Notes: a model not told the origin generated them from the sequence alone. DNA of 64,000 nt from a virus (IMGVR_UViG_2974601178_000001:56296-120295), one strand, 5' to 3'; counted from the stretch's first letter, positions 1 through 63,560 are shown. Numbers and translations are program-made.

Positions 1-169
1 ATCAAAATATCCCACTTTAAAATATCATTATGGAATAAGGGTGTAACCTTTTGTTATAAGGTGTGTTGGGGATAGGGTGTTTTTGTTGAATGGGTAATTT
101 TATAAAAAATTTTAAATCTACTTCTCGAAATGGGGGTGTACCTTTGGTATATATCTGTGGGAAAATATT

Positions 170-182
170 TAACTACTTGATA
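170..182 (-). promoter_or_regulatory. IHF-binding consensus site
   Basis: Minus strand TATCAAGTAGTTA matches WATCAAnnnnTTR exactly. Confidence 0.5.
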
Positions 183-1218
183 TAAAAGGGGTTATAGGTT
201 GGAAAAGGTTATTTTGGGAAATATTAGAACTACTTCCGTTACTTGTTTAACGCTTCACCTCATACTAAAGTACCACTTCTGAGAATATCAAAATAATTTC
301 CCAATAGTCCACTTCCCACAATAATAACATCTTATTAACAAGTGATACCCTTATAACAAAACCTTTCAATAAATGGATTCCTTATTCCAAAAGGTAATTC
401 AACATAATATATCTTATAGGAAGTCATTACAATTGTTACAATATAACACTTCCCAAAGTATTATCCCCTTTTGTTTTATAATACCAATTACTACAATAAA
501 ACAAAGATTAACCCACTTTATGCAATTATTACATTGTGTTAAAAGTATTAACATTTAATCAATATTTATTCAATTAGTGTGGGAAGTGGGATAATTTTTG
601 TAAAGTGGGGTAACTTGTGTTACTTTGTAACAAAGGGATGAGGTAGTGGGGTAGTTTGTGGCATTGCGTTTTTAAGGGGTTAAAAACCTCAACCCCAAAA
701 TCAACCCCCCTTTCCCTCACATCCACCTATAACCTAATCAACTAACATTTGTTTACACGTAAACAAGAATAATCACCATTTGACACAACGTGTCGAAGTA
801 TCCCCTATATTGTTACTATGTAACAAAATCAAGCCCTATAAGCTTTTCAAGCTAATTGATAATCCTTATCATTACATAAAAACACCTTGATCAATGTAAT
901 AAAGGATCACCCTTTTGATATAACATAACATATCAATTTTTATTATGTATCTATCTTAATATATAACTAATGCTTATAAGCTATCATTAATTATTGTTAC
1001 ATTATTACATATTCTTATAATCAATATAGTGTATGTTTACTATAACTAGTTGTTATAATTATAAATCCTTGTAAATTGTTATATTATCACACTAAATTTT
1101 GTTGTTTAAGAGTGGCACAATCTTTGCTAATAGATACCCTTTTGTTGTATAGCAGATTAATACAACAAAGTAAACCCTTTAGCATAAATAAAAGCCTAAT
1201 TAAAATCTACTCACAATA

Positions 1219-1541
1219 TGAATATTTATTCAAAAATGGTGCATATTAGCTAAAACCCTCTTTGTTGATAACAATTATCATTTATTCATGATATTGCATA
1301 AATAAGCACATATTTGCATAAAAGTGGTGTATGCATACAACGTGCCATCTTGGTTTGTGTGGTTATTTGCTCCTGTGAGCCATTCTGAGAAGGGTTTATT
1401 TTAGCTAAACAAGTGTACTGGGTAGCATTGCATATGCTCACAGGGGTGATTCTGTTGATACAAGCTGGAGGCCTTTATTTATAAGGGATTCCGAGGGTGC
1501 AAGGTATTTTTAGGTGAAATGGTGTTATGCATAAAAGTGCA
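1219..1541. promoter_or_regulatory. ARG-box-like (ArgR) palindromes
   Basis: TGAATATTTATTCA (1219), TGCATAAATAAGCA (1295), TGCATAAAAGTGCA (1528). Confidence 0.5.
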
Positions 1542-1579
1542 TAGGATTTTGGCACGTGGTGGGGTAAATTTTAGGCAAT

Positions 1580-1610
1580 AAAAAGCCACCTTTTACAGTG
1601 GCTTTATTTT
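1580..1610. terminator. Rho-independent terminator of the leftmost early gene
   Basis: aaaagccac-cttttaca-gtggcttt hairpin flanked by A/T runs. Confidence 0.7.
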
Positions 1611-1641
1611 AAATCTGTTAACATTTTCGCTCAGGTAGTTT

Positions 1642-2007
1642 TTAAGCTAATTTTTCAATATCCCAGTTATCTTCCTCATAACTCGCATCTCTAGAAACAA
1701 CTAACGATTGACCACCCATTTTAACAACCCCGTACAAGTTGCCATCTTTTTCAACAATGTTTTTAACTGTTCGTTTTATCATATGTGTGTAATTATCCAC
1801 CTGTGGGAAAGAGTTAGTACTGATATTAAATTTAACCATTTCAGACCATGTTAAGCTAACCTCTTGATTTTTCATGTTAGTTGTTTTTACTTCAGTGTTA
1901 TTAATTTTACCGTGTTTATCTTCAAAAGCTTTTTTATTTGCTTCAAATTCTGCATTCATTTTAGCAATGTTTAATAGTGAATTGTGAGCTTGTGATAATA
2001 AATCCAT
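1642..2007 (-). CDS. Hypothetical early protein (start moved to ATG 2007)
   Basis: GGAG RBS precedes ATG 2007; the longer GTG start overlaps the promoter. Confidence 0.7.
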   Translation of the reverse strand: MDLLSQAHNSLLNIAKMNAEFEANKKAFEDKHGKINNTEVKTTNMKNQEVSLTWSEMVKFNISTNSFPQVDNYTHMIKRTVKNIVEKDGNLYGVVKMGGQSLVVSRDASYEEDNWDIEKLA

Positions 2008-2748
2008 GATATTCTCCAATTGATAATGATTCTCATTTAGAAGGTGCTTTTTGCCTTTTCCTTCCCACCCCTTAATAATAGCAAACCTGTAGAATAACAC
2101 AACCCCTTTTAAGCAAATAAATCACACTTTTATCAAATTAATTCCAATTGATAACTATTATCATTACCTCCCACCAATACACAATTTTTATAAGGTGTCA
2201 ACTTTTTGAAAAAGGATTAGATTTGCTAAAACGTCCTGTATGCAATTCTAAGAGGTGTTAACCTACAACCCTACCACTAGTATTAAAACATTTACTTTTT
2301 AGCATACAGCGATTTTATAAAAAGATGGCATTCTAATTGCATACAAAAATTTATGATATTCTGGCATACTATTTGCTACGTGTGCAACACTTTTGTAAAT
2401 GGTAACTGTTATCAAATGATAATAGTTCTCATCAACACATAAAAACATTATAACCAAAATCAAATCCTTTATAACAAAACGTTATATGTGAAAAATGGCT
2501 TTTGTGGTAGTGTTTACCCCCAGTTGAAAAGGTTACTTAGTTAAACAAGAATTACTCGCATTTGATAATAATTCTTATTTATAAAGATTTTTAACTATTT
2601 GATCAATGTGCCTAGTTCCCTCTATAAGCCCCGCTAAGCTCCTCAAATTAATATTAATACAATCGTATAACATTGTTATCAAAAACGCTTCCAGTTCCTT
2701 TACAATGAATATAACAGCCAGTTCAAACAAGTTTTAATAGTGTTAAAA

Positions 2749-2958
2749 TTATCTTTTAAAAGTGGTACAACTACGAGTATTTAATTCGCCTTTAAGTTTT
2801 ACCCACTTCGACCCACTTTCACACATAACTTTAGCCATTGCCATTCTATCAGATTCTATCTTTTTGCTAGCTTCAGATAATCCACTACCTATAAAAACCA
2901 ATACGATAATAGAAAGAGTAGTAATTGATAAAGTTGTGATTAAAGTTAAAGTTTTCAT
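2749..2958 (-). CDS. Small membrane-anchored hypothetical protein
   Basis: N-terminal hydrophobic helix; upstream promoter motif near 3041. Confidence 0.6.
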   Translation of the reverse strand: MKTLTLITTLSITTLSIIVLVFIGSGLSEASKKIESDRMAMAKVMCESGSKWVKLKGELNTRSCTTFKR

Positions 2959-3286
2959 AATAATAACGCCTTTAAATTAAAAGCCCTTGCACCATTGCCC
3001 GAGCCGATAAATAGATAGTAAACTAGCTAAATTTTAATAACAACCCTTTTGAGCAAATTAAATCAAACTTTTTAAAAAATCCAACTCAAGCGCACAACCC
3101 GCAGCCAATCCAACACAACAACCACCACCAAAGCACACGGCACCATTAACCACATTGCACTTTTAACAAAGTTTAGCCCTTTGTGTTTAAATGTTTTCTT
3201 TTTTATGTAATCTTTAGTACGTTTTGAATAAAATTCATTGTTTGTCATTGTCTTGGCCTATTGTTAAAAATTATCTGTTATATATA

Positions 3287-3568
3287 TTAATTTTGTTTTA
3301 AAAGTTGTTTTATATCTTTGTTGTCCAGTTTTAAGACATCTTCGAAAATTGTTTTATCATTGCCATAATAAGTATGATCTTTAAAAATTATAGAAGACTC
3401 TGAATAATTTAAATCAGTTTCGACTTCTATAACTTCTAGTTTTAAATCATAATTTAGTTTATGATCTTTCAATATATTATCAAAGTAGTTATAAAGCGCT
3501 TTTTCTACTTGTTTAAAGGTAAACTTATAATCGTTTTCTAATGGTAGTTTATTTTGAGTTGGTAACAT
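3287..3568 (-). CDS. Hypothetical early protein
   Basis: ORF with AGGTG RBS, co-oriented with neighbours. Confidence 0.6.
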   Translation of the reverse strand: MLPTQNKLPLENDYKFTFKQVEKALYNYFDNILKDHKLNYDLKLEVIEVETDLNYSESSIIFKDHTYYGNDKTIFEDVLKLDNKDIKQLLKQN

Positions 3569-3715
3569 AGCAACACCTATTTATTAAAAATTATCTCTTA
3601 AGGAATAACCCGTATATTACAGGCTATTAGTTTAAAAGTAAACTTTTATTTATGAGCTAAATACGATTACCCAAACGATCAACAACCCTTTTTTGCAAAT
3701 TAATTTAATTATTTT

Positions 3716-4003
3716 TTAAACACTCTCTTCTATTGACACAAGCGCCCCATTTTTAAACACCACTTTATAAAAAATATTATTTATATATAAACTATGCTCC
3801 CCTTCTGCGTTCAATTTTAACAAACTTTTAAAAGCGCTCAAGACACATTTAGCTTGTGTTTTACCCATTGCACTGAGTGAACGTTCTAAACCTTGCAAAC
3901 GTAGCTTAGTAAACGTATCGGCCTCATCTCGTTTTAATTGTGCTTTAGCTTGTGCAATTTGTTGATCTTGTTGACTAGGAAAAAATGCTTTGAATAAACT
4001 CAT
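3716..4003 (-). CDS. Hypothetical early protein
   Basis: ORF in leftward early cluster. Confidence 0.65.
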   Translation of the reverse strand: MSLFKAFFPSQQDQQIAQAKAQLKRDEADTFTKLRLQGLERSLSAMGKTQAKCVLSAFKSLLKLNAEGEHSLYINNIFYKVVFKNGALVSIEESV

Positions 4004-4016
4004 ATTTTGCGGCCTG

Positions 4017-4157
4017 TTATAACGATTTTAAAAATTGTTTAGCTTTGCGGGCATTCTTGCGTTCACGTTTTAAGGTGTCGTGATCCTGTTTAAGTTGATC
4101 ATTTTTTGTTTGTGGCTTGCCTTTTTTGGTTCGTGTCGTTTTGATAAAGTTTGTCAT
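4017..4157 (-). CDS. Small basic 46-aa protein (MTNFIKTTRTKKGKPQ...RKNARKAKQFLKSL), below ORF-track cutoff
   Basis: Translated by hand; fills the gap between co-oriented genes. Confidence 0.55.
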   Translation of the reverse strand: MTNFIKTTRTKKGKPQTKNDQLKQDHDTLKRERKNARKAKQFLKSL

Positions 4158-4212
4158 TTTTGGATGCCTTTTTTAAAGTTGGGAGGTGGCGGGAGTGTCC
4201 CGCCGTTGTTGG

Positions 4213-4653
4213 TTATTGATTGTCGTCTTCGTCATAATCAAAGTCTGTTTGCTCAAGTATTTCGCTTATTTCTTCCTGAACATCGGCATACATTGCATAA
4301 AAAGCTAGTGCCTGATGTAAACCAGTTAGCCCATCTTTTTTAAGAATACTTGATAAACTATCACCACAAAATATGTTATCAATTGCATATTCTGAATTAG
4401 CAGAATATTTAAGTATATCTAAGTGGTAATGGTAGTAAATTGCATACTGGCTACCGTCTATTGTTTCATGTAACAAACTATCATTTACCAATTCTTCGAT
4501 CTCATCCCTGTTAAAACTAATTTGATCGCAATCTAAAGCTTCATTAATTGCATAGATAACACTATCCGTTAATGATAACACCGCTTGATGGTAGTTAAAA
4601 TCAGAGTTTAAGTTTTCAACGTTTTCGTAAGATACAGTAGTTAAGTTTTTCAT
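4213..4653 (-). CDS. Acidic Ocr/gp0.3-like DNA-mimic anti-restriction protein (putative)
   Basis: Very D/E-rich, acidic tail DFDYDEDDNQ; LHETIDGSQYAIYY resembles the Ocr IHMAADNAVPHYY segment; early location. Confidence 0.5.
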   Translation of the reverse strand: MKNLTTVSYENVENLNSDFNYHQAVLSLTDSVIYAINEALDCDQISFNRDEIEELVNDSLLHETIDGSQYAIYYHYHLDILKYSANSEYAIDNIFCGDSLSSILKKDGLTGLHQALAFYAMYADVQEEISEILEQTDFDYDEDDNQ

Positions 4654-4761
4654 AATAATACTCTCTTTTAAAATGTAAATTTTGCCTTAATTGGCGTTTT
4701 GTTTCAATAATGTAATTCTAGGTTAATTGGTATTTGTTGTCAATAAAAATTTTTAATTTAT

Positions 4762-4983
4762 TTAAATTAATTTTGCAGCAATAGCGCTAACTTCAGTAGC
4801 AACCCCATTCACAACGTCAAAGCGCTTTTTATTAAGTGGCTTAACACTTGGCATAGTAGCCGCCCATTTTTCGCCTGTAGCCTTGCTGCGCTCGTTAGAT
4901 TCAATTTTAACAAGCTGATCCGCCTTAACTGATTTGATGAAATTGCGTAAAGCTGTACGTGTTGGGAAGGTGAAAGTTTTCAT
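4762..4983 (-). CDS. Hypothetical early protein
   Basis: ORF with AGGA RBS. Confidence 0.65.
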   Translation of the reverse strand: MKTFTFPTRTALRNFIKSVKADQLVKIESNERSKATGEKWAATMPSVKPLNKKRFDVVNGVATEVSAIAAKLI

Positions 4984-5073
4984 GATTTGATCCTAGTTTG
5001 TTTTTACTGGTCAACGGTATTGCTAACCAGTAATTTAATATTAATTGATAACGTTTAATATTGCAAGTAGTTT

Positions 5074-5451
5074 TTAAAAGTTTTCTGCAATTTGTTTTAA
5101 ATAAAAATAACACTGATCAGCGTGATCTGATTCACTGCCACCGATTAAACTGATCGCGGTGTTAATAGCTACCTTTTGATCCTGTGTTAATTCTACCGTT
5201 GTAAGTTTTGGCACAATTGGTAATAAATCGGACTCTTTAAAATCAAAACCAGATTCTTTTAATATATAATTATAAGCATTGTTTAAAATCGCTTGCTTAC
5301 TATCAAAAGGTAAACCGACTTGATCACCGTTAACCATCGCACCATGTTTGACATAGAATCGCCATAGTTTACCCCAGCGTACCGCACTGATATAAGTATC
5401 TTCATTATTTTTAGCTAGTGTGATTGATTGATCAAAATCTGATAATTTCAT
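5074..5451 (-). CDS. Hypothetical early protein
   Basis: ORF with upstream TTGACA promoter near 5520. Confidence 0.65.
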   Translation of the reverse strand: MKLSDFDQSITLAKNNEDTYISAVRWGKLWRFYVKHGAMVNGDQVGLPFDSKQAILNNAYNYILKESGFDFKESDLLPIVPKLTTVELTQDQKVAINTAISLIGGSESDHADQCYFYLKQIAENF

Positions 5452-5811
5452 AGTTTAAAACCTTTTTAATAATGTGATTGTTTGATTGAGTGTTAATTGT
5501 AACGGTTGGCGTTGGTGGTGTCAACCGCTTTTTATGGTTTATTTTACTAAGTGGTAAATTAGGTCTTCTATATCTATTATGGTAAAATCTTCACTAGGGA
5601 AAAGTCTACAAGCTATATTAAAAACATCTCTTGTGTTTTTGTTCCCTTTTATCAACTCATTTTTAACCAAATTAATAATACCAGTGTTTAATCCATAAGT
5701 TTTGCAAATATTGCCTTTCATAATCTTAAACCTTAATTTTAAGCCTTGGCGGTATTGCCTAGCCGATAAATACATAATAGCACAATGTTTTTAATTTGTG
5801 CAAGTGTTTTA

Positions 5812-6054
5812 TTAAATTAACTGAGAATTAATGATCTTTGATCTTTCCTTTTCATAGATGACAACGCTTGAAAAATCATTTTTCATAGTGCCTGTGTGGT
5901 TTAATCTATCCAGTTTACTAAGTGCTAACCATCCACTAACATAAGAATTTAAACGGTCTTTTAAAAGTTGACAATCTTTGTTTAAACTAACTTGATCTTT
6001 TAATTTGTCGATCTCTTTTTGGTAATGATCTTTTAACATCTGCAAATTATCCAT
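5812..6054 (-). CDS. Hypothetical early protein
   Basis: ORF with AAGGA RBS. Confidence 0.6.
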   Translation of the reverse strand: MDNLQMLKDHYQKEIDKLKDQVSLNKDCQLLKDRLNSYVSGWLALSKLDRLNHTGTMKNDFSSVVIYEKERSKIINSQLI

Positions 6055-6310
6055 TTTTAAGTCCTTATTTATTTATATTCAAAATCAACTTGATCAAACT
6101 CGTTTACCAATTGCACTTTATAAAATCCACCATTTAAGCCAACCTTATGAGCTTGATCCGCTGGTACGTTGTAACGTGTAAATGGTGCGCTTGTTTCATA
6201 TTCAAAAGTAATAACTGTAAACATATTTAAAAACCTTGTGTTAATTGTTCGTTGTTTCAATACGTACACATTATAAGGATATTTTATCCGCTGTCAACAA
6301 GTAAAAACAA

Positions 6311-6817
6311 TTATTTTAAATATTTTTTAAACCTTGTGCTATAAATTTGCCAGCTGTGATCATCATCTATAACATTTTTAAAAACACTATTCCTTATATT
6401 AGGGTATTTGATCACCGTTGTTAATGTGTAATCTTTTTTACGTAGATTAAACCGCTCTTGCAAACGTTCAATTAATAAAGCGTGATCCGTTGGTGTTGGT
6501 GTCCAGTCATTGCAACAAAGATCTTTTATACTTTTATCTAATTTGTATAATTCAACTTTAACATTTTTATCGTGCTTGATCCCTCTTGCTTTTAATTCAC
6601 GTTTTAAAAGTCGGTGTCGCTTGGCTAAGTATAACAATTTATTTCTAAAAAATTTAACATGCCCCGCATTTAATGTGTAATTTGCTGGTATATCCTTTTG
6701 TTTGAAGCGGTGCGGATGTGTTACTAATTCATTAACTATTCTAGGCAACTCGCGCCATTCTGCAATTAGCCATTGGTCGGTTAGATCGCTTGGATCAATC
6801 GTATTGATTCTAGTCAT
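6311..6817 (-). CDS. denV: Pyrimidine-dimer DNA glycosylase (T4 endonuclease V family)
   Basis: MTRIN N-terminus, LIAEWRELPRI and YTLNAGHVKFF motifs; start moved to MTRIN. Confidence 0.9.
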   Translation of the reverse strand: MTRINTIDPSDLTDQWLIAEWRELPRIVNELVTHPHRFKQKDIPANYTLNAGHVKFFRNKLLYLAKRHRLLKRELKARGIKHDKNVKVELYKLDKSIKDLCCNDWTPTPTDHALLIERLQERFNLRKKDYTLTTVIKYPNIRNSVFKNVIDDDHSWQIYSTRFKKYLK

Positions 6818-7001
6818 AATAAGCCTTTGTTTAAGTTGTTCCAACACGTACAAAGTTATATTATTTTTAAGGTAGTGTAAACAGTTTTATTAAAAGAATT
6901 ATTTTTGCAAATAGTTGGTGATCTTTGTTGACAGGTTAAAACTTTTTCTTATATAATAGCAGGACACAAACAGAGAATATTATTTATAAAGGGTATATAT
7001 T

Positions 7002-7220
7002 ATGAAAACTAAATTACCAATTAAACGCGGTGGATCTTTTATTGTTGGATCTGATTGCGAGCCGATGTTGTTTACTGAAGCACAAGCTAAAACTTTTATT
7101 AAAAAATGTATAGCTTATAGGAACAGACAATTTAAAAGGAATAACCCTAATAATACATATAGAGAAAAACTTTTATCAGTAGATAACAGAGGATCATACT
7201 TTTCATATTCTAGTATTTAA
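7002..7220 (+). CDS. Hypothetical protein with own sigma70 promoter (TTGACA 6928, TATAAT 6952) and terminator (7241-7270)
   Basis: ORF, promoter and hairpin all visible. Confidence 0.65.
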   Translation: MKTKLPIKRGGSFIVGSDCEPMLFTEAQAKTFIKKCIAYRNRQFKRNNPNNTYREKLLSVDNRGSYFSYSSI

Positions 7221-7447
7221 AAGTTTAAATTAATCCACAAAAGCCCTTGCAATTAAAAGTGTAAGGGCTTATACTTCCTAACATAGTAAATTGGATTGAT
7301 TGAAGATATACAGGCCCCCTGCTTGTCATTCCTGCGAGCGCCTGTATGCGATTTTAAGAGGGCGTTTTAATAAAGGTAGTTTTGCACAAGTGGATTGAGA
7401 TCACCTTATACGGTGTTATACATGCTGAAGGGTAGCGTTTAGAAGAG

Positions 7448-7495
7448 TTACACACAGGCTTATTTAGTTATCCACAGGTAGAAAAGTTATCCACA
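7448..7495 (+). promoter_or_regulatory. Three co-oriented DnaA boxes
   Basis: TTACACACA (7448), TTATCCACA (7468), TTATCCACA (7487), spaced 20 and 19 bp. Confidence 0.7.
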
Positions 7496-7562
7496 ATAAA
7501 ATTAATTTAATTTATTTTTAAAAAAGTATTGTAATCTTATATTAGGTGCGTATAATGGAATA

Positions 7563-7635
7563 CATAGAAACAAGCATGCGAACTTTAGCGAAAGCGGGAA
7601 CGGTGGAGAATAAAACACCGAGGCTGCGTGAAATT
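7563..7635 (+). ncRNA. Putative small structured RNA downstream of a sigma70 promoter
   Basis: TTGTAA-N16-TATAAT (7529-7556), no ORF; GC-GAAA-GC and CGGTG/CACCG hairpins closed by CATGCG/TGCGTG. Confidence 0.35.
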
Positions 7636-7803
7636 TAAAATGTTATGATATAACATAACAACTATTTTGCTATAATATAACATCTCATATATTTTGATAC
7701 AGTATAATATGGTATTGAAAATGTAATTCGGTTTTTGGGAGATGATTCTAAGTTTTATGAAAATTTTTTGGGTCTCGGGTAAATGATTTTTCTACCCAGT
7801 TCT

Positions 7804-7816
7804 TAAGTTGTTGATT
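7804..7816 (-). promoter_or_regulatory. IHF-binding consensus site
   Basis: AATCAACAACTTA on minus strand. Confidence 0.5.
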
Positions 7817-7915
7817 TTAAAGAATATTATTTTCGTATCGAGTTCTAAATGATTTTTCATAAAATTAGAAGAACCTGTTAACAAGAATGACTTCTATAAC
7901 AGGTTCTTATTTTAA

Positions 7916-9004
7916 CTACTTATAATGTAAAGTATGTAACTTACTCTTATATTCCTCTAAATTTTCTGGATGATTCAACGATGCAAACTCTCCAAATAAA
8001 TCTACAGCCATTAAATCTCTATACCAAGAGGCTTCTTCTTTGGTATGGAAAGCTTTAGCTCTGGAACGTTTGTTTATCATAATTTCTGCATACCACCTCT
8101 TATTCAATGTACCATCTTTAGCGTATTCATTTCTATGCCCTTTAAATTTTACACCCAGTACTCCGTTTTTGTTTTTAATTACACCTTTATTATAATTATT
8201 CTGTGCTATGGTGGCTAAGCGTAGATTTAACTTCCTGTTATCTACAATAACTCCGTTAACGTGGTCAGCTTTGTAATCCGTGTTATCTCCTAATCCTAAC
8301 ACACAACGGTGAAGGTGCAAAGTTAATTTCCTGCGGTCTTTAGGCGGGGTTATATCTAATCTCCTACAGTTATCTTTACTATAATTAGCTATCACATAAC
8401 CTGCAGGATTGTTTACCCACATTATCTTACTCCACACATTGTAGACTTCTTTGTCAACTAAACTAAAACCTATTATCCTCTCTCTTCCTACAATACCACT
8501 GAATATAGGTATCTTCTTCTCTAGTGTATTATCTGTGTCTGGGCACCAAGTCTCCATATGTTTCTCAAACAAGGAAGCGGATTCTTTATAAACTCGTTTA
8601 CCACTACCACACCCACAACTAGGACTATGTACCTTAATAACTTCCGTAGCTACCTTTTTAAAAGTATTACCACAATGACACTTGAAGAAGTACATAGATG
8701 TTTTACCCTTTTCACATAACCCTGCATAACCTAGTACACGACAACCTCCATAATCCAAATCTGGTAAGTCATTTTCAGGGTTTTGGTTGTCAATTTTTAC
8801 AAAGGTAGCTTTGTGCTTATTAATCCTATGTTTAATGTGATCAACATTCTCCGTTGTGTTTAATATCTCTTTCTTCGTGTATGTATTTTCATAACCTGTA
8901 CCCTTATAACGTATTTTATAACCCCTTCTAGGATTGAAACCAATAACAACAAAAGTATCACCTTCTCCATTCAAAAACTCATCACCTACTTCAATATCCT
9001 TCAA
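7916..9004 (-). CDS. HNH homing endonuclease with C-terminal AP2 domain
   Basis: LHR...ADHVNGVIVDNRKLNLRLAT..QN HNH motif, GV..W.AEI AP2 domain, CHCG/SCGC zinc motifs; TTG 9004 has a GAGGG RBS. Confidence 0.85.
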   Translation of the reverse strand: MKDIEVGDEFLNGEGDTFVVIGFNPRRGYKIRYKGTGYENTYTKKEILNTTENVDHIKHRINKHKATFVKIDNQNPENDLPDLDYGGCRVLGYAGLCEKGKTSMYFFKCHCGNTFKKVATEVIKVHSPSCGCGSGKRVYKESASLFEKHMETWCPDTDNTLEKKIPIFSGIVGRERIIGFSLVDKEVYNVWSKIMWVNNPAGYVIANYSKDNCRRLDITPPKDRRKLTLHLHRCVLGLGDNTDYKADHVNGVIVDNRKLNLRLATIAQNNYNKGVIKNKNGVLGVKFKGHRNEYAKDGTLNKRWYAEIMINKRSRAKAFHTKEEASWYRDLMAVDLFGEFASLNHPENLEEYKSKLHTLHYK

Positions 9005-9038
9005 AATTTTTACCCTCTTCTTATTTATTAATCCTTTA

Positions 9039-9377
9039 TCAATGAGTATGCACACTGTTAAACATCTTATTAACGCTTCTATTATACTTTCCGCAAACCA
9101 CTTCCACTTTCTTATAACCAACCCACTTATCACCTTGGTAAACCTTTACACGCTTGTTATAGGTGCATTTTGGATAAGATGAATGTCCACTATTCTTCCC
9201 ACTTAATTCAAAAATCCTTTGCGGCAATAGGAACTCTTTATTAACCGTGTTAATCTTTTGTGCAATTTCCTGTTGAATACTCTCAGGTACTTTGTATTCA
9301 AAATCATGTGGCGCACAAACCTCCATTGATAAAGTGGCTGTTACCATAATTGTAGTGATCACACCTTCGCAAATCAT
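9039..9377 (-). CDS. Hypothetical protein
   Basis: ORF with GGAG RBS. Confidence 0.65.
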   Translation of the reverse strand: MICEGVITTIMVTATLSMEVCAPHDFEYKVPESIQQEIAQKINTVNKEFLLPQRIFELSGKNSGHSSYPKCTYNKRVKVYQGDKWVGYKKVEVVCGKYNRSVNKMFNSVHTH

Positions 9378-9611
9378 AATCTTTCTCCTAATAATTAATT
9401 TATAAACAGGGTAGCTTAATATGAGAAGAGTGTCAAGTTCTTTTTGAAAAGGGTTTCTGTTTATGTTAAATGAAATTAGCCTCAGGGTGTCCTCTCACAA
9501 CACCTACCCTTCCAGAAGGTGATTATCCATCAGACAAAAGAAAACCCCTTGTACGCTCTGTGAAGGCGCAGAAGGGGCTGTTTTGTGATTAGGGTTATCC
9601 TTTGTGTAAAG

Positions 9612-10088
9612 CTACAGTTCGTAAATCGTTACACTAGCATAACACCCATCTAAACAATGGTCAATCAATTCTTTGATAATTTCTTGTTCACATCCACCAA
9701 GGCCAGCGCCAATCCAAGGAACACCAATTTTTAAATCTCGTGGATTCCTTGTGTCAATGTCCTGTAAATATGTGAACAAGTTACAAAACCCGCTTGCAAT
9801 AGCACCATAATTTGCATAACGTTTGCCACTTCTACCATAATACTCTTGACTGCAAAGGTTTATAACTTTTCCACCATTGGATAAATCTCCAAGAGGGATG
9901 TTCTTTTTACCAAAGTCAATCCATTGTTGGTGTTGTTTCATGTAGGCTTGGTATGCTTCTGGAATGCGTTTCCTAATTTCACCAGCGATCCCACTTTTGT
10001 ACACCCCTTTCGAATTCGTACCATGTACCAAGTAATCAATCTCACCATTTAATAGAGCGTCTACTGCATTACCCTTAATTATTTTCAT
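9612..10088 (-). CDS. Macrodomain (ADP-ribose-binding/hydrolase) protein
   Basis: IIKGN, VHGTN..G...SGIAG, PWIGAGLGG motifs. Confidence 0.85.
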   Translation of the reverse strand: MKIIKGNAVDALLNGEIDYLVHGTNSKGVYKSGIAGEIRKRIPEAYQAYMKQHQQWIDFGKKNIPLGDLSNGGKVINLCSQEYYGRSGKRYANYGAIASGFCNLFTYLQDIDTRNPRDLKIGVPWIGAGLGGCEQEIIKELIDHCLDGCYASVTIYEL

Positions 10089-27902: not shown

Positions 27903-28949
27903 ATGTCAATAACTGAAGATAAAAATAAAGAAATACTTTATAAACTAGAAAATAAGTATCAACAAAGAGTTGTAGATTTGTTAGGACCCTCCGCCACTTT
28001 CTTAGAGTTTAAAGTAGTTAGTGAAAGGTTAGATAAAAACAAATGCAAACTTATTTGTAACACACATAAGGAAATATGTTACCCTCAAATAGCTAATGTA
28101 CTTCATAGAAAAAGAAGCGGATGTAAACATTGCGCTCAAGAATCTAGAAATAGAAAGAGTATAAAAGATGAAGATGTTTTCTTAGAAGAGCTGAGAGAAT
28201 CTTGTGATAAACATAACTGTACCTTTCTAGGCTACGTAGAAGGATACAAAGGTTCTTACCATACCGAAGTTAAACTAAAGTGTAATATACATACCGAAGA
28301 AGATGAATTTACATGTACAGGTAGAACACTGTCTAGACCCGCAAGAAAAACTTCAGGGTGTCCTTCCTGTTTTAATGAACATTTTTTACAACTATCTATA
28401 AAAAGAAATCAAAAACATATAAATATGTTTTTCGATACAGGTAAATTCCATCCCAATTCTACTTTCTGTAGAGATGAAGAAAGAAAAACTACACAAGGAG
28501 TTAGGAGTTACTGGAAGGTTGTTTGTGGTGATTGTGGTGAAAGCTACCCTTCCTGTACAGGAACTTTAAAAGCAGGTAGTAGGGGATGCAGTTGTGCTAA
28601 ACTAACTAACAATATGGGATTTTACCCAGATAGGGTGAATTGGGATGACACTCTTTACTTATTAAAACTGATATCTAAAAAGGATTGTGATGAAAAAGAG
28701 TGTTTCTATAAGATAGGTAGATCTTTTTGTTTTGACAAAAGACTTTCTAATTTAAAAGCTCATTATGATATAGATGTAATATCTACTATTACTAATAACC
28801 ATAAAGAAATTTTTGAAAAAGAGAAGCACCTTTTAAAAAGTAATAAACCCCATGCTTACTCTCCTCTTATCTCCTTCGGAGGTCAAGGAGAATGTTTCAC
28901 CAAAGAAATACTCAATCACCCAGAAATAATATCCACCTTCAACCTCTAA
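27903..28949 (+). CDS. Free-standing putative homing endonuclease (Zn-finger repeats plus GIY-YIG-like T5orf172-type domain)
   Basis: Repeated C..H / GC..C modules; LYLL...FYKIGRS...KRL...E...FGGQGECF. Confidence 0.75.
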   Translation: MSITEDKNKEILYKLENKYQQRVVDLLGPSATFLEFKVVSERLDKNKCKLICNTHKEICYPQIANVLHRKRSGCKHCAQESRNRKSIKDEDVFLEELRESCDKHNCTFLGYVEGYKGSYHTEVKLKCNIHTEEDEFTCTGRTLSRPARKTSGCPSCFNEHFLQLSIKRNQKHINMFFDTGKFHPNSTFCRDEERKTTQGVRSYWKVVCGDCGESYPSCTGTLKAGSRGCSCAKLTNNMGFYPDRVNWDDTLYLLKLISKKDCDEKECFYKIGRSFCFDKRLSNLKAHYDIDVISTITNNHKEIFEKEKHLLKSNKPHAYSPLISFGGQGECFTKEILNHPEIISTFNL

Positions 28950-29099: not shown

Positions 29100-29303
29100 A
29101 TGACCAAATCAATAACCCGCTCAGAATCAGCTACTCACTCATTCAGAATATCTTATGGCAGCAAAGGTAACTTTGAATTAAAGTACTCTCGCATCAAGAA
29201 GGGTGCTGGAAAAGGTAAACTTCGTACAAGAGTGTTTTATCGGAAAGGTAATACTTTTGAAAATTTAACTTGGGGTTTAAATGAAAACATACAATGTATT
29301 TAA
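29100..29303 (+). CDS. Small basic protein overlapping the tnpB start
   Basis: TTGACA promoter near 29017, AGGAG RBS, 23-nt overlap with next ORF. Confidence 0.6.
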   Translation: MTKSITRSESATHSFRISYGSKGNFELKYSRIKKGAGKGKLRTRVFYRKGNTFENLTWGLNENIQCI

Positions 29304-30732
29304 AACTTATAGGTTTGAACTAAGAGACCTATCTAAGAAGAAAATTAAATTACTAAATCAATCTTATAAACAAGCAGAGATGCTATATTATAAAGCACTA
29401 TCTCTATGTAAAGAAGATGCTGAGAAGATGTTATTAATTGATGATAAGAAAGAACGTAAGACGGAGAGTTACAAACTTGCCAAAAAGTTGCAAGCTATTG
29501 TTAAACCTTTACCGTATTCAAGTGCAATTAAATCATCTGTCATAGAAGGTGTTAAAGCACAGGTATTATCTTATGTAGAACTAACATTATATGGGCAAGA
29601 TGCAACTTATCCAGAGAAGTTTGATTTAGAATATGATTATGATTATTGGTTGAATGTCCTTATTAACAGCGATTCAAAAGATATAGAAGACTTAGCAAGA
29701 GATGAAATGTCCCGTACCAAAGTTAAAGACTTCAGGCCACTTACTTATGAAAAGTATAGAACTAATGACGGATTTATGATCCTTGATAATGGAGAAGGTC
29801 GTTTGTATGCAATGTTGAGTTTATGGGGTGCTAAAGATAAACGAGCAACACCATTAGATATTAACATGATTGATACACGGACAGGAGAAGAATTTAAGAA
29901 GAAAACTTCTTGTGGATTATTATTCCCATTGATGTGCTCTAATACTCAAAAACAAGCTCTTATAGATGGTCAAGCTAAGACAGCTAAACTTGTAAAACGT
30001 GGTGACAGGTATTTTCTAATGGTAAGTGTTGCCTTTGAAGTAGAGGCTAGGTCACCAAAATATACCCTTGGGGTTGATAGAGGTATAGAAGAAATAGCTA
30101 CATACGTTGTACGTGACGAATCAGGTAAAGTTGTTGATAAGGGGAGTTTCTCTGGTGTACAATTACGTAACCATCAAAGAAGAGTGGAACTAGCACAAAA
30201 GAATAATCAACGTGCAGGAAGAAAACGAGTGCAAGGTTGGAGTAATTACACAACAAACCTGATGCACAATTTATCTAATGAGATAGTGAAGGTAGCTGAT
30301 AAATATTGTTGTCAGGTTGTTATTGAGGATTTGAATAATATAAAGAATAATGCTAACATGAAACGTAAGAAAGGTGCAAGGAAGTCAAACTTTAGAAGAA
30401 TGTTATCTAGGCAACAGTATGGAAGGCTGGAGTTTATGTTAGAATATAAACTTAAAGCAAAAGGGTTACCTCCTTCTAAAAGTGTAAGGGCTGCCTACAC
30501 ATCAACAACCTGCCCTAAATGTGGTAATGTTGATAAAGAAAATCGTCTGACACGAGATACATTCTTATGTAAAGTGTGCGACTACACTGAACACGCTGAT
30601 ATTGTAGGTGCTATAAATATTGCTGGAAAACAGTTGCACTTTGAAAAGATTAAAGGTAAACTTAAGAAAGGGAAACCTTTACCATATGAATTGAAGTATT
30701 CAAATTGGTTGAAAGATAATTTAAAATTATAG
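29281..30732 (+). CDS. tnpB: TnpB/Cas12f-like RNA-guided RuvC nuclease, catalytic triad intact
   Basis: RuvC-I LGVDRG, RuvC-II VVIEDL, Zn finger CPKC...CKVC, RuvC-III HADIVGAINIA. Confidence 0.9.
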   Translation: MKTYNVFKTYRFELRDLSKKKIKLLNQSYKQAEMLYYKALSLCKEDAEKMLLIDDKKERKTESYKLAKKLQAIVKPLPYSSAIKSSVIEGVKAQVLSYVELTLYGQDATYPEKFDLEYDYDYWLNVLINSDSKDIEDLARDEMSRTKVKDFRPLTYEKYRTNDGFMILDNGEGRLYAMLSLWGAKDKRATPLDINMIDTRTGEEFKKKTSCGLLFPLMCSNTQKQALIDGQAKTAKLVKRGDRYFLMVSVAFEVEARSPKYTLGVDRGIEEIATYVVRDESGKVVDKGSFSGVQLRNHQRRVELAQKNNQRAGRKRVQGWSNYTTNLMHNLSNEIVKVADKYCCQVVIEDLNNIKNNANMKRKKGARKSNFRRMLSRQQYGRLEFMLEYKLKAKGLPPSKSVRAAYTSTTCPKCGNVDKENRLTRDTFLCKVCDYTEHADIVGAINIAGKQLHFEKIKGKLKKGKPLPYELKYSNWLKDNLKL

Positions 30733-54476: not shown

Positions 54477-55922
54477 TCACATTCCGTGTAATGACTTTTG
54501 GTATTCTTGTTGTAAGATATCCTTTATCTTATTGTAATCTGTATGACTGTAACATTCTGTCCAACCATCACTGAATTTTTCTCTATCAACTGTAACTCTA
54601 TCGAACAAGGGTTTCAACATAGCTTCAATTGCAGGGGGAGTTTCTCCATTTTCGAAATGATATTCATCTAGGATAACACCTTCGTAATCTGTACTATTTC
54701 TACTTTGATTTTCTAATCGGGTAATTGCACCAAGATTGGTTATACCTACTTTCAGGAAACTGGGTTCACCTGTTAAAGTGTTCAACCATATAGAAATGTA
54801 AATACTTCCTGAGATGTGAGATTTGTAACCGTTGGCTTTGCAACAAGGGCAACCTTTACCTAGTCTTACGTTGCTATAAGCAATAGGGAACGGTTTATTA
54901 GTAACAGGGCAGAGGAATCTTATAGGAGTGGTGTTATTGACATAGTCATCAATTCTTGTATAAAGCACACCCTTTGCTTTTAATTCAGCATCCACTTCTT
55001 CATTGGTGAGTCTTTGTCTTTCACCAGAAAGTTTAAAACTGCATTTCGAACAGAAGTGTTTCTTTAAGTGTAGGTTTGCTGTCCCCATTGGAACAATACC
55101 GTGTTCTTCACAAAAGACTTTAACCGACTTATTATGATAATCTTCTTGAGTTATGTGTTCTGTAGGGTAACCTAAATCTTCTACTCTAGATAGGAACTCT
55201 TTATAAAATCTTTCTTTTGTTTTGGCCTTTTTGATACATCCACAAGAAGATTTATGTATTTGAGTGGCTTCTTTTATAAAGTAAATCTTATTTTTACATT
55301 TACATTCCACAAAGTAACCTTCTACTCCTTCTCTAGACAAACCCCTACCTAAGATTAAATTTCCATTTACCAAATCACCAGAATAATATTTTAAACGTCT
55401 ACCTTCTTCAGGTAAAAATTCTATATCTTCCAATTTATAAAACCTATCTACTCTTGTGTGGTCTCTTTCTTTAAAGGTTTTTAATCTTTGCTTTTGGGCA
55501 CAAACTTGGCATCCAGCTCCGTGTTGATGGTGATCTGCTACAATAGGGAAATAATCTTTGCATGTATTACAAAACACTTGAATGGTTTCCCTTACACCGT
55601 TTAAAGATATGACTTTATTATAATCATACTTATCACCGTGGATGGATTTACATTTGTGAATAAAGTCTTCTACTTTTAAACGTCTCTTTGATGCCCTAAT
55701 AACCAAGTTACACTGCTTGCAAGGTGTGGCTGTTTTAGTAAATAAAGACTTGTAGTAAACCGTACCAACCACTCCGTGTTCCTTACAAGCAACCTTTAAA
55801 TCTTTATCCAACCACTTATAGATATCTACATCGTATAAAGGGTAATCTGGGAAAGTATCTTCATACTTTTGTAAAAACTTCTTGTATCTGGTAGGGTGAT
55901 TGTGTAATAATTCTCTCTTCAA
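54477..55922 (-). CDS. Free-standing putative homing endonuclease (Zn-finger repeats plus GIY-YIG-like domain)
   Basis: C..HG / GC..C repeats, HGDKYDY, IY...FLKVGITN...R...IE...DGWTEC. Confidence 0.8.
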   Translation of the reverse strand: MKRELLHNHPTRYKKFLQKYEDTFPDYPLYDVDIYKWLDKDLKVACKEHGVVGTVYYKSLFTKTATPCKQCNLVIRASKRRLKVEDFIHKCKSIHGDKYDYNKVISLNGVRETIQVFCNTCKDYFPIVADHHQHGAGCQVCAQKQRLKTFKERDHTRVDRFYKLEDIEFLPEEGRRLKYYSGDLVNGNLILGRGLSREGVEGYFVECKCKNKIYFIKEATQIHKSSCGCIKKAKTKERFYKEFLSRVEDLGYPTEHITQEDYHNKSVKVFCEEHGIVPMGTANLHLKKHFCSKCSFKLSGERQRLTNEEVDAELKAKGVLYTRIDDYVNNTTPIRFLCPVTNKPFPIAYSNVRLGKGCPCCKANGYKSHISGSIYISIWLNTLTGEPSFLKVGITNLGAITRLENQSRNSTDYEGVILDEYHFENGETPPAIEAMLKPLFDRVTVDREKFSDGWTECYSHTDYNKIKDILQQEYQKSLHGM

Positions 55923-60792: not shown

Positions 60793-63560
60793 TCATCGGA
60801 TAGACTTGCGGTAAGATGTGTATGCTGTTGGGGAAGTGGTGTCTGGGAGGCTGTAGGCGCGGATTACCTTGTTGGAATTTAACACAGAGAAGGCATCACT
60901 GGTTGCATCTAACATATCATCCTTAGATCTTCTCATGTCTTTAGGTATCCCAGTGAAATTTTCAAGTTCCCCGAAGTAATCTTTATTCCAATCTGCCCTT
61001 ACATACTTAACTAGACCCGTTTCAGCGGCAATAGAGAAAGGCTGGAACCTGTCTACTTTCGCTTTATTGGTTTTTGTTGTAGTAGCCCTAAAACCTAAAC
61101 TAGTTAGTTCTGAAATGAAACCTTTTATATATCTTTGGGACGCAGGGTTGGGGTCTGTCGGTAAGTATATAACTACGCTATCTCCATACTGCTCTTTATC
61201 TTCGTATGCAGTCTTTATAATAAGATCTTCCACTTTCGCAGCAGAGAATCTTTCTCTTACTACATCTTCTACTACGTATTGCCAAGTTTTATCTAAAGAG
61301 GATTCTTGACTTTTACTCATAAGTACTCCTGCGGTATAATCAGGATTTCTAGCGTAACTACCTGAAGGAGAAGACGGATCATATTCTGTCCCAGCCAAAT
61401 CCCATGCTCTACACCTAGAGGCATTAGCAGGTAATTTATCTACAGGAGATAACCATTCTCGGTTAAAGTACATACAACCTGTTTCAGTGTTATGCCAACA
61501 ACCAAGAAGTAATTGCTTACGTTTTGCTTCTGGTAAAGAGTCAAGAGAGGACTTATAATCGATTTCAAGGTCTTGGAGAATTTTATTGTCTTCGATCGTA
61601 GACGGGATTAACGTATAAGTCTTAGCGTTCTTGTCAGGGAACTTTTTCTTCAACTCTTCTCTATCCCAATCGGAATGTAATACCCCACCAACCATAACAA
61701 AATATCTTATCTTACAGGCGAGTTCTTTATCAGGGTAGCCTTCCTCGTTAAGAAAAGGTTTTACCCAGTCGTACACAAAATGTCCACCGTCTGGATTAAG
61801 CGTCATACGAGCACAAGATTTAACTTTAGCTTTAGATCTAAGACGAGAACGTATTACATCGAAACAATACTCACTCTGTCTTTGAAATTCATCAAAGTAC
61901 ACTCTTGAAAGCTCAGCTCCGTACCCTATAATCATTTCAGATTATCAGACTATAACATCACTATCACTAGTGTCAGAAGATTTAGTCGTTGCGGGTGTAG
62001 TATTCATATTTTGCAGTGTTTTGTGAAGTATTAGATTAGATTCAAAAGTGGCTCCGTACCTTTTTAAATTAGTTTGGTTAGCTATGATATTTATAATAAA
62101 GTCGTATTGATCTTTCTTCAAAACTAAATGTTTCCCGAAGTAACTTAATTTATCTCTGGAAGAATAGTTAAGAGTAAGGGCATATCTTATACAATTTTTA
62201 TCTTTATGCACCCTACCACCAAAACATTTATGTATAAGGTTTATAGCAGTAGCTTGTGTTTCATGACTTACTATAGATAATCTAAATTCGACTAGACCTG
62301 TTTTCTTATTGAAGTAAGAGTTTAAACTTCCATCTCCATCAATATAACCTGCCATCCATTTCCTAGAAGGGAAATTTCTCTCTGGTGAGGTTTGTAATCT
62401 AGCTAACTGTATCTGTTTTCTTATAAGTTTTGTTTCTTCTTTAGTACAAAAAACTTTATCTAATTCTAATACTTTTTCTGCAACAGGTTTCTTTATTATT
62501 AAGTGATTCTTCACTTGTTGAATAAATTTTATAGCTTTTGAGCAGTTTAGTGTAACACAAAGGCAGCCTTTAGATTCAGTAACTTTAACATTGAATTCTT
62601 TAGCTAAATCATCTAAAACTTTCCTTCTTTTCTCTATCTGGTAGAGAGTGCATCTAATTTGTGAATAGTAACTATTTTCTGATCTTTTTGTGAATTGAAC
62701 ATCAAACGTACCATCTGCATCAAACAAACCTGCATAATATTTTATATTTTTAATCATCTTGAACTTCTGTCCTGTATTGGATTAATTTTCTACTTCCCTC
62801 GTGTTGCAAGAACAAGTCTTGTTTCCACGTTATTTACTTCTGATTTTACATTCCCAGTTATGTTAAGGAATCGGCATCTTTATCATGTTGTAGGTATGAG
62901 AAAGTTGATTTGGCTCCCGATGGGAAAGTTATCACGTGCTTTTGATAGTTTATGTGGGCCTTCCCTATAAACTTCCCTTCTTTTTTATGTCCTTGCGGAT
63001 ATTTTAAAAAAGGTTCGTACATTTTCAAGGCTTCTGGCCATAAATTTGTTTCTAGCTCTATAGTGGTATTACGAAAAAATACACTGAAGTAGAGTGGGTC
63101 ACCTACATACTTGAGATTATCAAATAGTATCGCCCATGTTTTACCCTTTATAATTTTATACTCGCTACAGTATTTCCACAGTTTCCTGTGTAATTGGACT
63201 ATATCTTCATCTTTTAAAAGATGCCTACCGTTTCAAACCACCAATAGCTTGTGGTCTTACAGAGCTACACTCATCACTCTTAGTCTCTTGACACAACGAT
63301 CATTAATCGCCTTTGTAACGGATTGCCTTGGAGTAGATACTCTTTAGGTTTCCCATTTTAGATAGGTTATTGTCATTCGTATCACTACGAAAGGGAGGCA
63401 ATAATTAACAACCTCCGCCGCCTCCACCGTAAAATATGAAATCTATTTCTTCACCTTTACCGTAAGCTAAGCCTTCCTCTGATAAGCCATCTGTTTTTAT
63501 AGAAACAAATTGTTGTTGCCTACCTTCCTGAGGTTTCATAACATTATTTTTCTTTGTCAT
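60793..63560 (-). CDS. terL: Terminase large subunit, spliced: join(63560-63411, 63145-62866, 61925-60793), 520 aa
   Basis: Splicing rebuilds Walker A FYGGGGGG|GKT and DADS-W-YGAELSRVYFDE; AWDLA and DDMLDA nuclease motifs. Confidence 0.92.
61926..62865 (-). mobile_element. Group I intron 2 of terL (940 nt, LAGLIDADG-encoding)
   Basis: P1 UUCCU/GGGAA with U.G; P7 GACUA/UAGUC; terminal G. Confidence 0.88.
61945..62757 (-). CDS. Intron-encoded double-motif LAGLIDADG homing endonuclease
   Basis: YYAGLFDADG and WMAGYIDGDG. Confidence 0.9.
   Translation of the reverse strand: MIKNIKYYAGLFDADGTFDVQFTKRSENSYYSQIRCTLYQIEKRRKVLDDLAKEFNVKVTESKGCLCVTLNCSKAIKFIQQVKNHLIIKKPVAEKVLELDKVFCTKEETKLIRKQIQLARLQTSPERNFPSRKWMAGYIDGDGSLNSYFNKKTGLVEFRLSIVSHETQATAINLIHKCFGGRVHKDKNCIRYALTLNYSSRDKLSYFGKHLVLKKDQYDFIINIIANQTNLKRYGATFESNLILHKTLQNMNTTPATTKSSDTSDSDVIV
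63146..63410 (-). mobile_element. Group I intron 1 of terL (265 nt, no ORF) inside Walker A
   Basis: P1 GGAGGU/GCCUCC; P7 GACUA/UAGUC; terminal G. Confidence 0.9.

Follow-up and report, generated by a model that had tools for sequence, protein, structure and literature searches.

The window analysed here, a 64,000-nucleotide stretch of viral DNA (bases 56296-120295 of a 120,295-bp IMG/VR virus record, genome G000), contains between positions 170 and 7816 a cluster of sites resembling those of host DNA-binding proteins, in and around DNA without genes. The sites are present, clustered and conserved, and promoter-like boxes are followed at short distances by operator-like ones; the binding of host proteins and what is transcribed are inferred. 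The explanation that we prefer, plausible though a little short of probable, is that of a control zone inside the genome, where the early gene block ends downstream, in which exchangeable cis-regulatory cassettes that sense the state of the host are combined with a DnaA-box module acting as an origin or a promoter. The DNA matches of the phage were HM1, H101 and PH357, and it is one of the large Pseudoalteromonas myoviruses.

The genome was scanned with consensus patterns, and the counts were compared with 300 dinucleotide-preserving shuffles and with the rest of the 120-kb genome. Six sites matched the Fur 7-1-7 consensus with two mismatches or fewer (four with one mismatch, two with two), where 0.09-0.15 were expected and none of the 300 shuffles gave as many. 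They lie within 1.7 kb (857-2577) and represent six of the ten Fur-type sites of the genome. The sigma-54 core TGGCAY-N5-TTGCW was found three times without mismatch, always on the plus strand, against an expectation of about 0.01; the genome has no other match to it, and a control scan with the reversed pattern gave none. A fourth box with one mismatch is on the minus strand, and all four fall within 1.3 kb, with -24 GG and -12 GC elements at fixed spacing that fit TGGCACG-N4-TTGCW. Perfect DnaA boxes numbered two (0.09 expected), and 38 GATC sites were present in 170-7816 where 9.6 were expected. For the ARG box, one perfect copy and one copy with a single mismatch (557-574) were found, against 0.05-0.11 expected, and at up to two mismatches there was no clear excess over the shuffles. 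The IHF consensus occurred three times (1.27 expected), a count reached in 39 of the 300 shuffles. The clusters of Fur, sigma-54, DnaA and GATC sites are real, that of ArgR is marginal and that of IHF fails.

The original prediction, made by a model from the sequence, had described a landing pad for unrelated host factors with six to seven Fur, four sigma-54, three DnaA and three to four ArgR sites, besides IHF sites and a GATC island. The Fur and sigma-54 counts and the island were reproduced. Two of the three DnaA boxes stood, the third being a one-mismatch match inside a gene and not significant. The ArgR sites were reduced to the two copies above, and an operator with two boxes approximately 3 bp apart was not found, the perfect box being single and the other 660 bp off. 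The IHF sites were lost to chance.

Conservation was assessed by pairwise alignment with L246, a 140.9-kb contig found by a homologue search with the orphan protein encoded at 1642-2007 (70% protein identity), in which the whole segment is in mirror orientation. DNA identity between the two genomes was 75% in this gene and 81-82% in the flanking non-coding DNA. All four sigma-54 boxes were identical, spacers included (64 of 64 bases), a result matched by 3 of 5000 random placements, and the pooled host-factor positions were identical at 160 of 172 bases (0.93), matched by 6 of 5000. The perfect ARG box was also unchanged (18/18). Six Fur-type boxes are present in L246, one of which is a perfect consensus, and the sole 40/40-identical stretch common to both genomes (1996-2039) contains the Fur-type palindrome F3. 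A perfect minus-strand sigma-54 box is kept in the syntenic gap of both PH357 and H101, phages with one or two sigma-54 boxes. Judged from these comparisons, the sites are under purifying selection.

Several of the Fur-type palindromes are placed shortly downstream of promoters (Table 1). F2, F3 and F5 lie at approximately +29 to +55 from starts inferred from the sequence. The promoter-like box D1 and the leader of the orphan gene are bracketed by F4 and F3. D1 has only three good copies in the window, all in this region, and its search gave six matches against 0.58 expected; it looks like a promoter class of the phage itself, and resembles the Mot-box type of T4-type phages, a TGCTT-like box followed by a -10 element. 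With this placement of promoter and then Fur box, iron-loaded Fur would be expected to block the promoters that have a Fur-type palindrome 15-55 nt downstream (P54b by way of F2, P54d by way of F5 and D1 by way of F3), while the four host-type sigma-54 promoters would fire only with an active host enhancer-binding protein. Three of the four sigma-54 boxes are directed against the early genes in both G000 and L246, and the sigma-54 output would for this reason be a non-coding or antisense RNA, or read-through into the neighbouring helicase operon, tuning early expression. A sigma-54 activator domain (PF00158), Fur and a D12-class Dam were sought in the phage genome, and none is encoded. Since the phage is without them, binding would be expected from host proteins, which are the likely readers of the predicted sites. 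Pseudoalteromonas, like other Gammaproteobacteria of its group, encodes RpoN, Fur, ArgR, DnaA and Dam.

The same arrangement recurs in other phages. In contigs L247 and L248 the order is an E element (a motif described below), a sigma-54 box, a Fur-type box identical to F2 at approximately +15 to +29, a sigma-70 promoter and two small co-directional open reading frames (ORFs); these contigs also have four DnaA boxes and an F3-like box ahead of the orphan gene. Window positions 2225-2330, comprising element E2 and box P54c, share 71% identity over 106 nt with the divergently arranged control region of L052, an unrelated phage contig of higher GC content, where the sigma-54 promoters face an operon amid a LexA-type palindrome and DnaA boxes. 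A transcription unit downstream of the sigma-54 box is present in L247/L248 and in L052. Within a group of phage contigs of 110-128 kb, sigma-54 boxes have a perfect DnaA box close by, either 8-11 nt downstream or immediately upstream of them (G003, loci L054/L243, 562-594 and 3942-3971; G002, 75922-75956), and sigma-54 and DnaA boxes co-occur in several contigs.

In the HM1-like contig, which is the closest relative, 903-2746 is replaced by approximately 475 bp and none of these sigma-54 or Fur sites is present. As the sites are conserved in relatives and yet the segment is gone from this contig, 903-2746 would be functional where present but accessory. The indel could also be taken to mean that the region is evolutionary debris, with control cassettes orphaned by recombination in a hyperplastic region and left with no present function. 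Cassettes common to unrelated phages and promoters that point away from genes would be compatible with this, but orphaned sites would not be better conserved than the adjacent coding sequence, nor would all four sigma-54 boxes be unchanged in a diverged relative, and we regard debris as highly improbable. Exchangeable cassettes have a precedent in the PeSL/PmSL cassettes of T4-type phages (PMC2839356, PMC4122927), which are short conserved units of a promoter and a hairpin, found where genes adjoin in hyperplastic regions; they accompany indels between close relatives, and different phages have them in common. The corresponding features here are the three D1 copies at gene boundaries, the 903-2746 indel and the E2-P54 cassette shared with L052. 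The PeSLs consist of sigma-70 or MotA-type promoters with a terminator hairpin, whereas some of the cassettes here have sigma-54 promoters with Fur-type operators.

Titration is a further alternative to cis-regulation. The sites would then not serve phage transcription, and the replicating genome would act as a DNA sponge that titrates host Fur, sigma-54 holoenzyme, ArgR and DnaA and reprogrammes their regulons. Near-consensus, clustered and conserved sites are what a sponge would have, and three of the four sigma-54 boxes are without a gene to drive. The sigma-54 holoenzyme is moreover able to form stable closed complexes without an activator, and many of its chromosomal sites are off operon starts (PMC3844500). 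There are, however, just four to six sites per factor. Sigma-54 is a low-abundance factor, so that four sites multiplied by approximately 100 genome copies could matter; Fur is abundant in the cell, and a very high copy number would therefore be needed. A sponge would also leave unexplained the repeated spacing from promoter to Fur box and the presence of the same cassettes ahead of ORFs in L247 and L052, and the HM1-like relative is without any of these sites. We consider titration to be quite unlikely, and cis-regulation is favoured over a position-free effect because the promoter-operator geometry recurs and the same cassettes precede genes elsewhere.

A number of points weigh against the cis-regulatory explanation. 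A decoy would be just as likely to have conserved sites, and the segment 903-2746 is dispensable, as the HM1-like relative is without it. The Fur, ArgR and sigma-54 consensuses used were of the E. coli type and did not come from a Pseudoalteromonas matrix. At the sigma-54 boxes neither an enhancer-binding-protein site nor a known activator motif could be recognised, and an E element is upstream of just two of the four boxes, in variable orientation. Finally, no credible ORF was found downstream of any sigma-54 box in G000 or L246. In this respect the original statement that most sites are not placed to regulate an ORF was correct, but it did not hold for the Fur boxes 15-55 nt downstream of promoters, for F3 and F4 at gene 1642-2007, or for the DnaA pair, which is upstream of a conserved promoter.

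Sigma-54 sites away from operon starts are known from bacteria, and in Salmonella many of those detected by chromatin immunoprecipitation on microarrays were able to work as promoters (PMC3844500). The boxes described here are similar to the bacterial sites in the fit of their -24 GG and -12 GC elements to the consensus, and differ in being clustered in the non-coding DNA of a virulent-type phage that has no activator gene. A literature search for sigma-54 promoters or promoter clusters in (lytic) phages found no relevant paper. An operator for the host iron repressor on phage DNA, as predicted here, is familiar from the Fur-repressed, phage-borne promoter of Shiga toxin 1. In that case a temperate phage has one operator, at the promoter of a cargo gene, unlike the six boxes in 1.7 kb found here, several of which are downstream of sigma-54 promoters.

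The second module of the proposed control zone, separate from the first, comprises the DnaA pair, the AT-rich tract that follows it and a strong promoter; the GATC island adjoins it (Table 1). The promoter is predicted to produce a transcript of approximately 300 nt without an ORF. In H101 the pair, the tract and the promoter are kept, and extra DnaA boxes are present besides. The GATC island is unique in the genome, with 32 sites in two 2-kb bins against an average of approximately 3.6, and is found at the syntenic place in PH357, H101, HM1 and L246. Origins of the oriC type and iteron/DnaA-box origins have DnaA boxes, an adjacent AT-rich tract and GATC enrichment nearby. The module resembles them in its perfect boxes, the tract alongside and the GATC enrichment near it, and differs in having two boxes only and in its GATC sites, which extend across 4 kb of genes and are not packed in the origin. 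GC skew tracked gene orientation and gave no origin signal. The module might function as a replication origin or as a DnaA-controlled promoter.

Two further observations were made. Window 7565-7915 has blocks that are kept in H101, among them a hairpin near 7780-7800 whose stem has changed in a compensatory way (GGTA/TACC against GCAG/CTGC), and this stretch may be a non-coding RNA or a leader. A gene for a DNA adenine/N4-N6 methyltransferase is located a few kilobases to the left of the left gap in all relatives (L004 6471-6992; L246 10248-10348; L008 225-1010), and only a 173-aa piece of it was called in G000; it may be connected with the GATC island.

The region had also been taken for the terminal, first-injected part of the genome. 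The ends of the record share a 119-bp overlap, no other repeat was found, and the assembly is circularly closed. Window position 1 is for this reason an arbitrary internal point, 56 kb inside the record, and the genome-end claim was not upheld. A related proposal is a genome-end or injection-control region of the T5 type, in which repeats and host-factor sites at the physical terminus would retain or stall the DNA during entry, or shield its end. It would have its model in Repeat Region 3 of T5, which is large, untranslated and furnished with palindromes and with DnaA boxes, the latter proposed to hold the DNA at membrane-bound DnaA in an injection stop (bioRxiv 10.1101/866236), so that the idea of a pause in genome entry is not new. 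Weak hints in the same direction are the HM1 GenBank record, which is cut open within this gap, the E/sigma-54/DnaA module of the unrelated phage G003, which is inside an 8-kb direct terminal repeat, and the large terminase, which is nearest to those of FelixO1-, PAK_P1-, rV5- and ICP1-type phages. Several FelixO1-, PAK_P1- and rV5-like phages have short terminal repeats. Besides the closed record and its single repeat, however, the PH357, H101, HM1-like and L246 contigs continue straight through the gap, the DnaA boxes are 6 kb away from the left gap, and the gene content is not T5-like. A physical terminus here is very unlikely.

The likeness to the T5 Repeat Regions (Davison, bioRxiv 10.1101/866236) is that of a large untranslated early region of a lytic phage, dense in repeats and palindromes, with consensus DnaA boxes, better conserved than the neighbouring ORFs and with homing-endonuclease genes nearby. 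The T5 region is, however, part of a 10-kb terminal repeat that has been mapped, and there the DnaA boxes form pairs, 3 bp apart, within long inverted repeats. Here two boxes in direct orientation, with 10 bp between them, precede a promoter, and sigma-54 and Fur boxes, which are absent from the description of T5, dominate. The composite reading of a landing pad at a genome end is thus partly supported: a non-random, selected cluster for sigma-54 holoenzyme, Fur and DnaA remained, while the IHF sites, all but a single perfect ArgR box and the genome end did not.

The left of the ORF-free gaps begins approximately 475 (300-475) bases ahead of window position 1 and ends at 1641, and is thus larger than was first described. 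It is the largest ORF-free stretch in the genome, and a credible ORF was sought in it and none found. The gene-free nature of the other stretches was also confirmed, with a second gap at 2008-2748 and a third at 7221-7915, beyond the early block. The left gap is bounded on one side by a perfect-consensus sigma-70 promoter, reading into a leftward operon that encodes a 59-aa protein and a 526-aa DEAD/ResIII-like protein, and on the other side by a hairpin terminator. Synteny with a gap of 1.9-2.2 kb was also observed in PH357, H101 and the contig behind L246.

The left gap contains arrays in which each unit is a variable palindrome (stem 5-8, spacer 3) and a G-rich box, phased at 29-32 bp. In the syntenic gaps, perfect palindromes with a stem of at least 6 and a spacer of 3 numbered 22 in PH357 and 19 in H101, against approximately 1 in shuffles; in G000 they are weak (4 against 1.2). 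The arrays, with palindromes of 13-19 bp, are located at L005 9250-11300 (PH357) and L008 3900-5250 (H101). It is conceivable that the gap is a nucleoprotein platform, where a phage factor, with the 59-aa product as one candidate, binds the left-gap units and perhaps the Fur-like palindromes, for replication, packaging or autoregulation. The approximately 30-bp phased arrays are family-specific and conserved in position, the Fur-like boxes have the same 6-3-6 geometry as the array palindromes, and the small conserved gene is always beside the gap: it flanks it in G000, PH357 and H101 (L004 9502-9681, minus strand, approximately 320-500 bases upstream of window position 1). The AlphaFold model of its product (predicted local distance difference test, pLDDT, 74) has a basic, unstructured N-terminus and three helices. 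This succession of a basic N-terminus and helices is reminiscent of ribbon-helix-helix proteins, but the product had no Pfam match, and Foldseek against the PDB gave nothing significant, the best hit being a ribbon-helix-helix regulator with E = 4. On the other hand, the Fur-like boxes fit the host consensus far above chance, and the palindromes vary from unit to unit; at one orthologous spot, two compensatory pairs distinguish the palindrome of G000 from that of the HM1-like contig. Because of this variation and compensation, the palindromes would act as hairpins or cruciforms and not as the target of one sequence-specific protein, and the platform is considered unlikely.

Two other explanations for the palindromes were rejected. 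Hairpin promoters of the N4 type, which would suit the 3-nt loops, were ruled out as the phage has no ORF for a giant virion RNA polymerase, and the sizes and motifs do not fit integron attC sites or IS200/605 ends. A repeat family D2 (TGATATAACATAACA type; window 913-949 and 7643-7701) links the left and right gaps, and its core is kept in H101 and the HM1-like contig.

The E motif (17 nt, CTGTAnGCnATTCTnAG) has exactly three copies in the genome, all of them on the plus strand and in this region. Boxes P54b and P54c have an E element 16-25 nt upstream, and P54a has none. The motif was also found outside this genome (L052, L054, L051, L164 and L187), in unrelated marine phage contigs and in bacterial DNA. 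A scan of bacterial genomes with the core gave mostly chance matches, and four with an extended flank, of which two are copies in Pectobacterium, one belongs to a Mu-like prophage of Vibrio and one to an uncultured contig. With a 27-nt identical flank, E directly follows gene ends in the Vibrio Mu-like prophage (the stop of a Mu F-like gene) and in the Pectobacterium chromosome (two tandem copies after a serine recombinase gene). E1 to E3 and their homologues were folded, and a structured RNA was rejected, as a closing stem is present only in E1 and E2 (z approximately -2.6) and is not shared by the homologues. E is probably a DNA site, and may be the boundary of a mobile cassette or a protein site.

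Table 1. Positions of the features of the region, counted from the first base of the window.
Feature	Position	Strand	Remarks
Left-gap box units (CCCTTTTG / AGTGGGG type)	1..1300		family-specific; variable palindromes with 3-nt spacer; blocks of alternating orientation
IHF consensus match	170..182	-	chance level; second match 7804-7816
Left-gap conserved core	394..425		30/32 identical in PH357; recognisable in H101 and HM1-like contig
Fur-type palindrome F1	857..871		1 mismatch to 7-1-7; 14/15 in L246, where the copy is a perfect consensus
Sigma-54 -24/-12 box P54a	1113..1128	+	exact core; 16/16 identical in L246
Perfect ARG box	1217..1234		0 mismatches to 18-mer consensus; 18/18 in L246; no second box 3 bp away
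Fur-type palindrome F2	1266..1280		approximately +41 to +55 from inferred P54b start; identical 15-mer after sigma-54 box in L247/L248
Sigma-54 box P54b (-12 element ATGCA)	1332..1347	-	1 mismatch; 16/16 identical in L246
E1 element (core CTGTAnGCnATTCTnAG)	1373..1445	+	closed by 9-bp inverted repeat; directly upstream of P54b; conserved block in PH357
Hairpin terminator	1582..1605		ends leftward block of small, mostly orphan early genes starting at endonuclease V
Orphan gene, 121 aa	1642..2007	-	no family assignment; homologues in related phage contigs only
Fur-type palindrome F3	2021..2035		5' leader of gene 1642-2007, adjoins ribosome-binding site; 15/15 in L246
D1 promoter-like box	2099..2117	-	further copies 3039-3057, 3681-3699; all 80-113 nt ahead of minus-strand gene starts
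Fur-type palindrome F4	2149..2163		just upstream of D1 promoter of gene 1642-2007
E2 element	2236..2310	+	upstream of P54c and P54d
Sigma-54 box P54c	2326..2341	+	exact core; 16/16 identical in L246
Sigma-54 box P54d	2362..2377	+	exact core; 16/16 identical in L246
Fur-type palindrome F5	2417..2431		approximately +29 to +43 from inferred P54d start; arm of inverted repeat I1
Fur-type palindrome F6	2563..2577		other arm of inverted repeat I1
GATC island (mostly TGATC)	3677..7401		over small early genes
E3 core	7342..7358	+	conserved in HM1-like contig and H101
Two perfect DnaA boxes, 10 bp apart	7468..7495	+	starting at 7468 and 7487; same pair and spacing in H101
AT-rich tract (33 nt), then sigma-70-type promoter	7496..7556	+	TTGTAA / 16-nt spacer / TATAAT

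Other genes of the phage include those for endonuclease V, a T4-type polynucleotide kinase and RNA ligase, a primase-helicase, DNA polymerase, tail sheath, portal and the major head protein. The large terminase gene (window 60793-62757) looks split: a 380-aa ORF matches no more than the C-terminal two thirds of the profile, and the ORF immediately upstream encodes an HNH endonuclease. A 483-aa ORF resembling a TnpB/IS605-type transposase is present amid the replication genes (window 29281-30732; phrog_506). Genes for HNH/homing endonucleases are numerous (window 7916-9133, 27903-28949 and 54477-55922; L004 585-1397), and one of them directly adjoins the DnaA-box gap. A tRNA scan detected none, and Rfam (E-value mode), run on window 1-10000 and four related loci, gave no family match to any element. 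When the flanking helicase-like protein was used as a query, alone or as a three-sequence alignment, no additional related loci were obtained. In the literature on HM1, PH357 and H101, this region and the genome ends are not discussed.

The assumption that this region is a genome end is not supported by the present analysis. A wider proposition is that lytic marine phages carry conserved clusters of activator-dependent, Fur-gated sigma-54 promoters in gene-less DNA, either as a decoy that takes up the scarce sigma-54 holoenzyme, and Fur with it, while the genome replicates, or as a sensor from which regulatory RNAs are made solely in hosts under iron and nitrogen stress. We regard this as possible, if doubtful; a decoy or stress-sensor role, if true, would be an undescribed coupling of infection to host physiology. 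As it involves approximately 2 kb of DNA, and as HM1, PH357 and H101 are relatives available in culture, this is a small and tractable system. If host sigma-54 polymerase and Fur do read the sites, a virulent marine phage would tie its early programme to the iron and nitrogen signals of its host without a regulator of its own, which would be relevant for the course of infections in nutrient-limited seawater.

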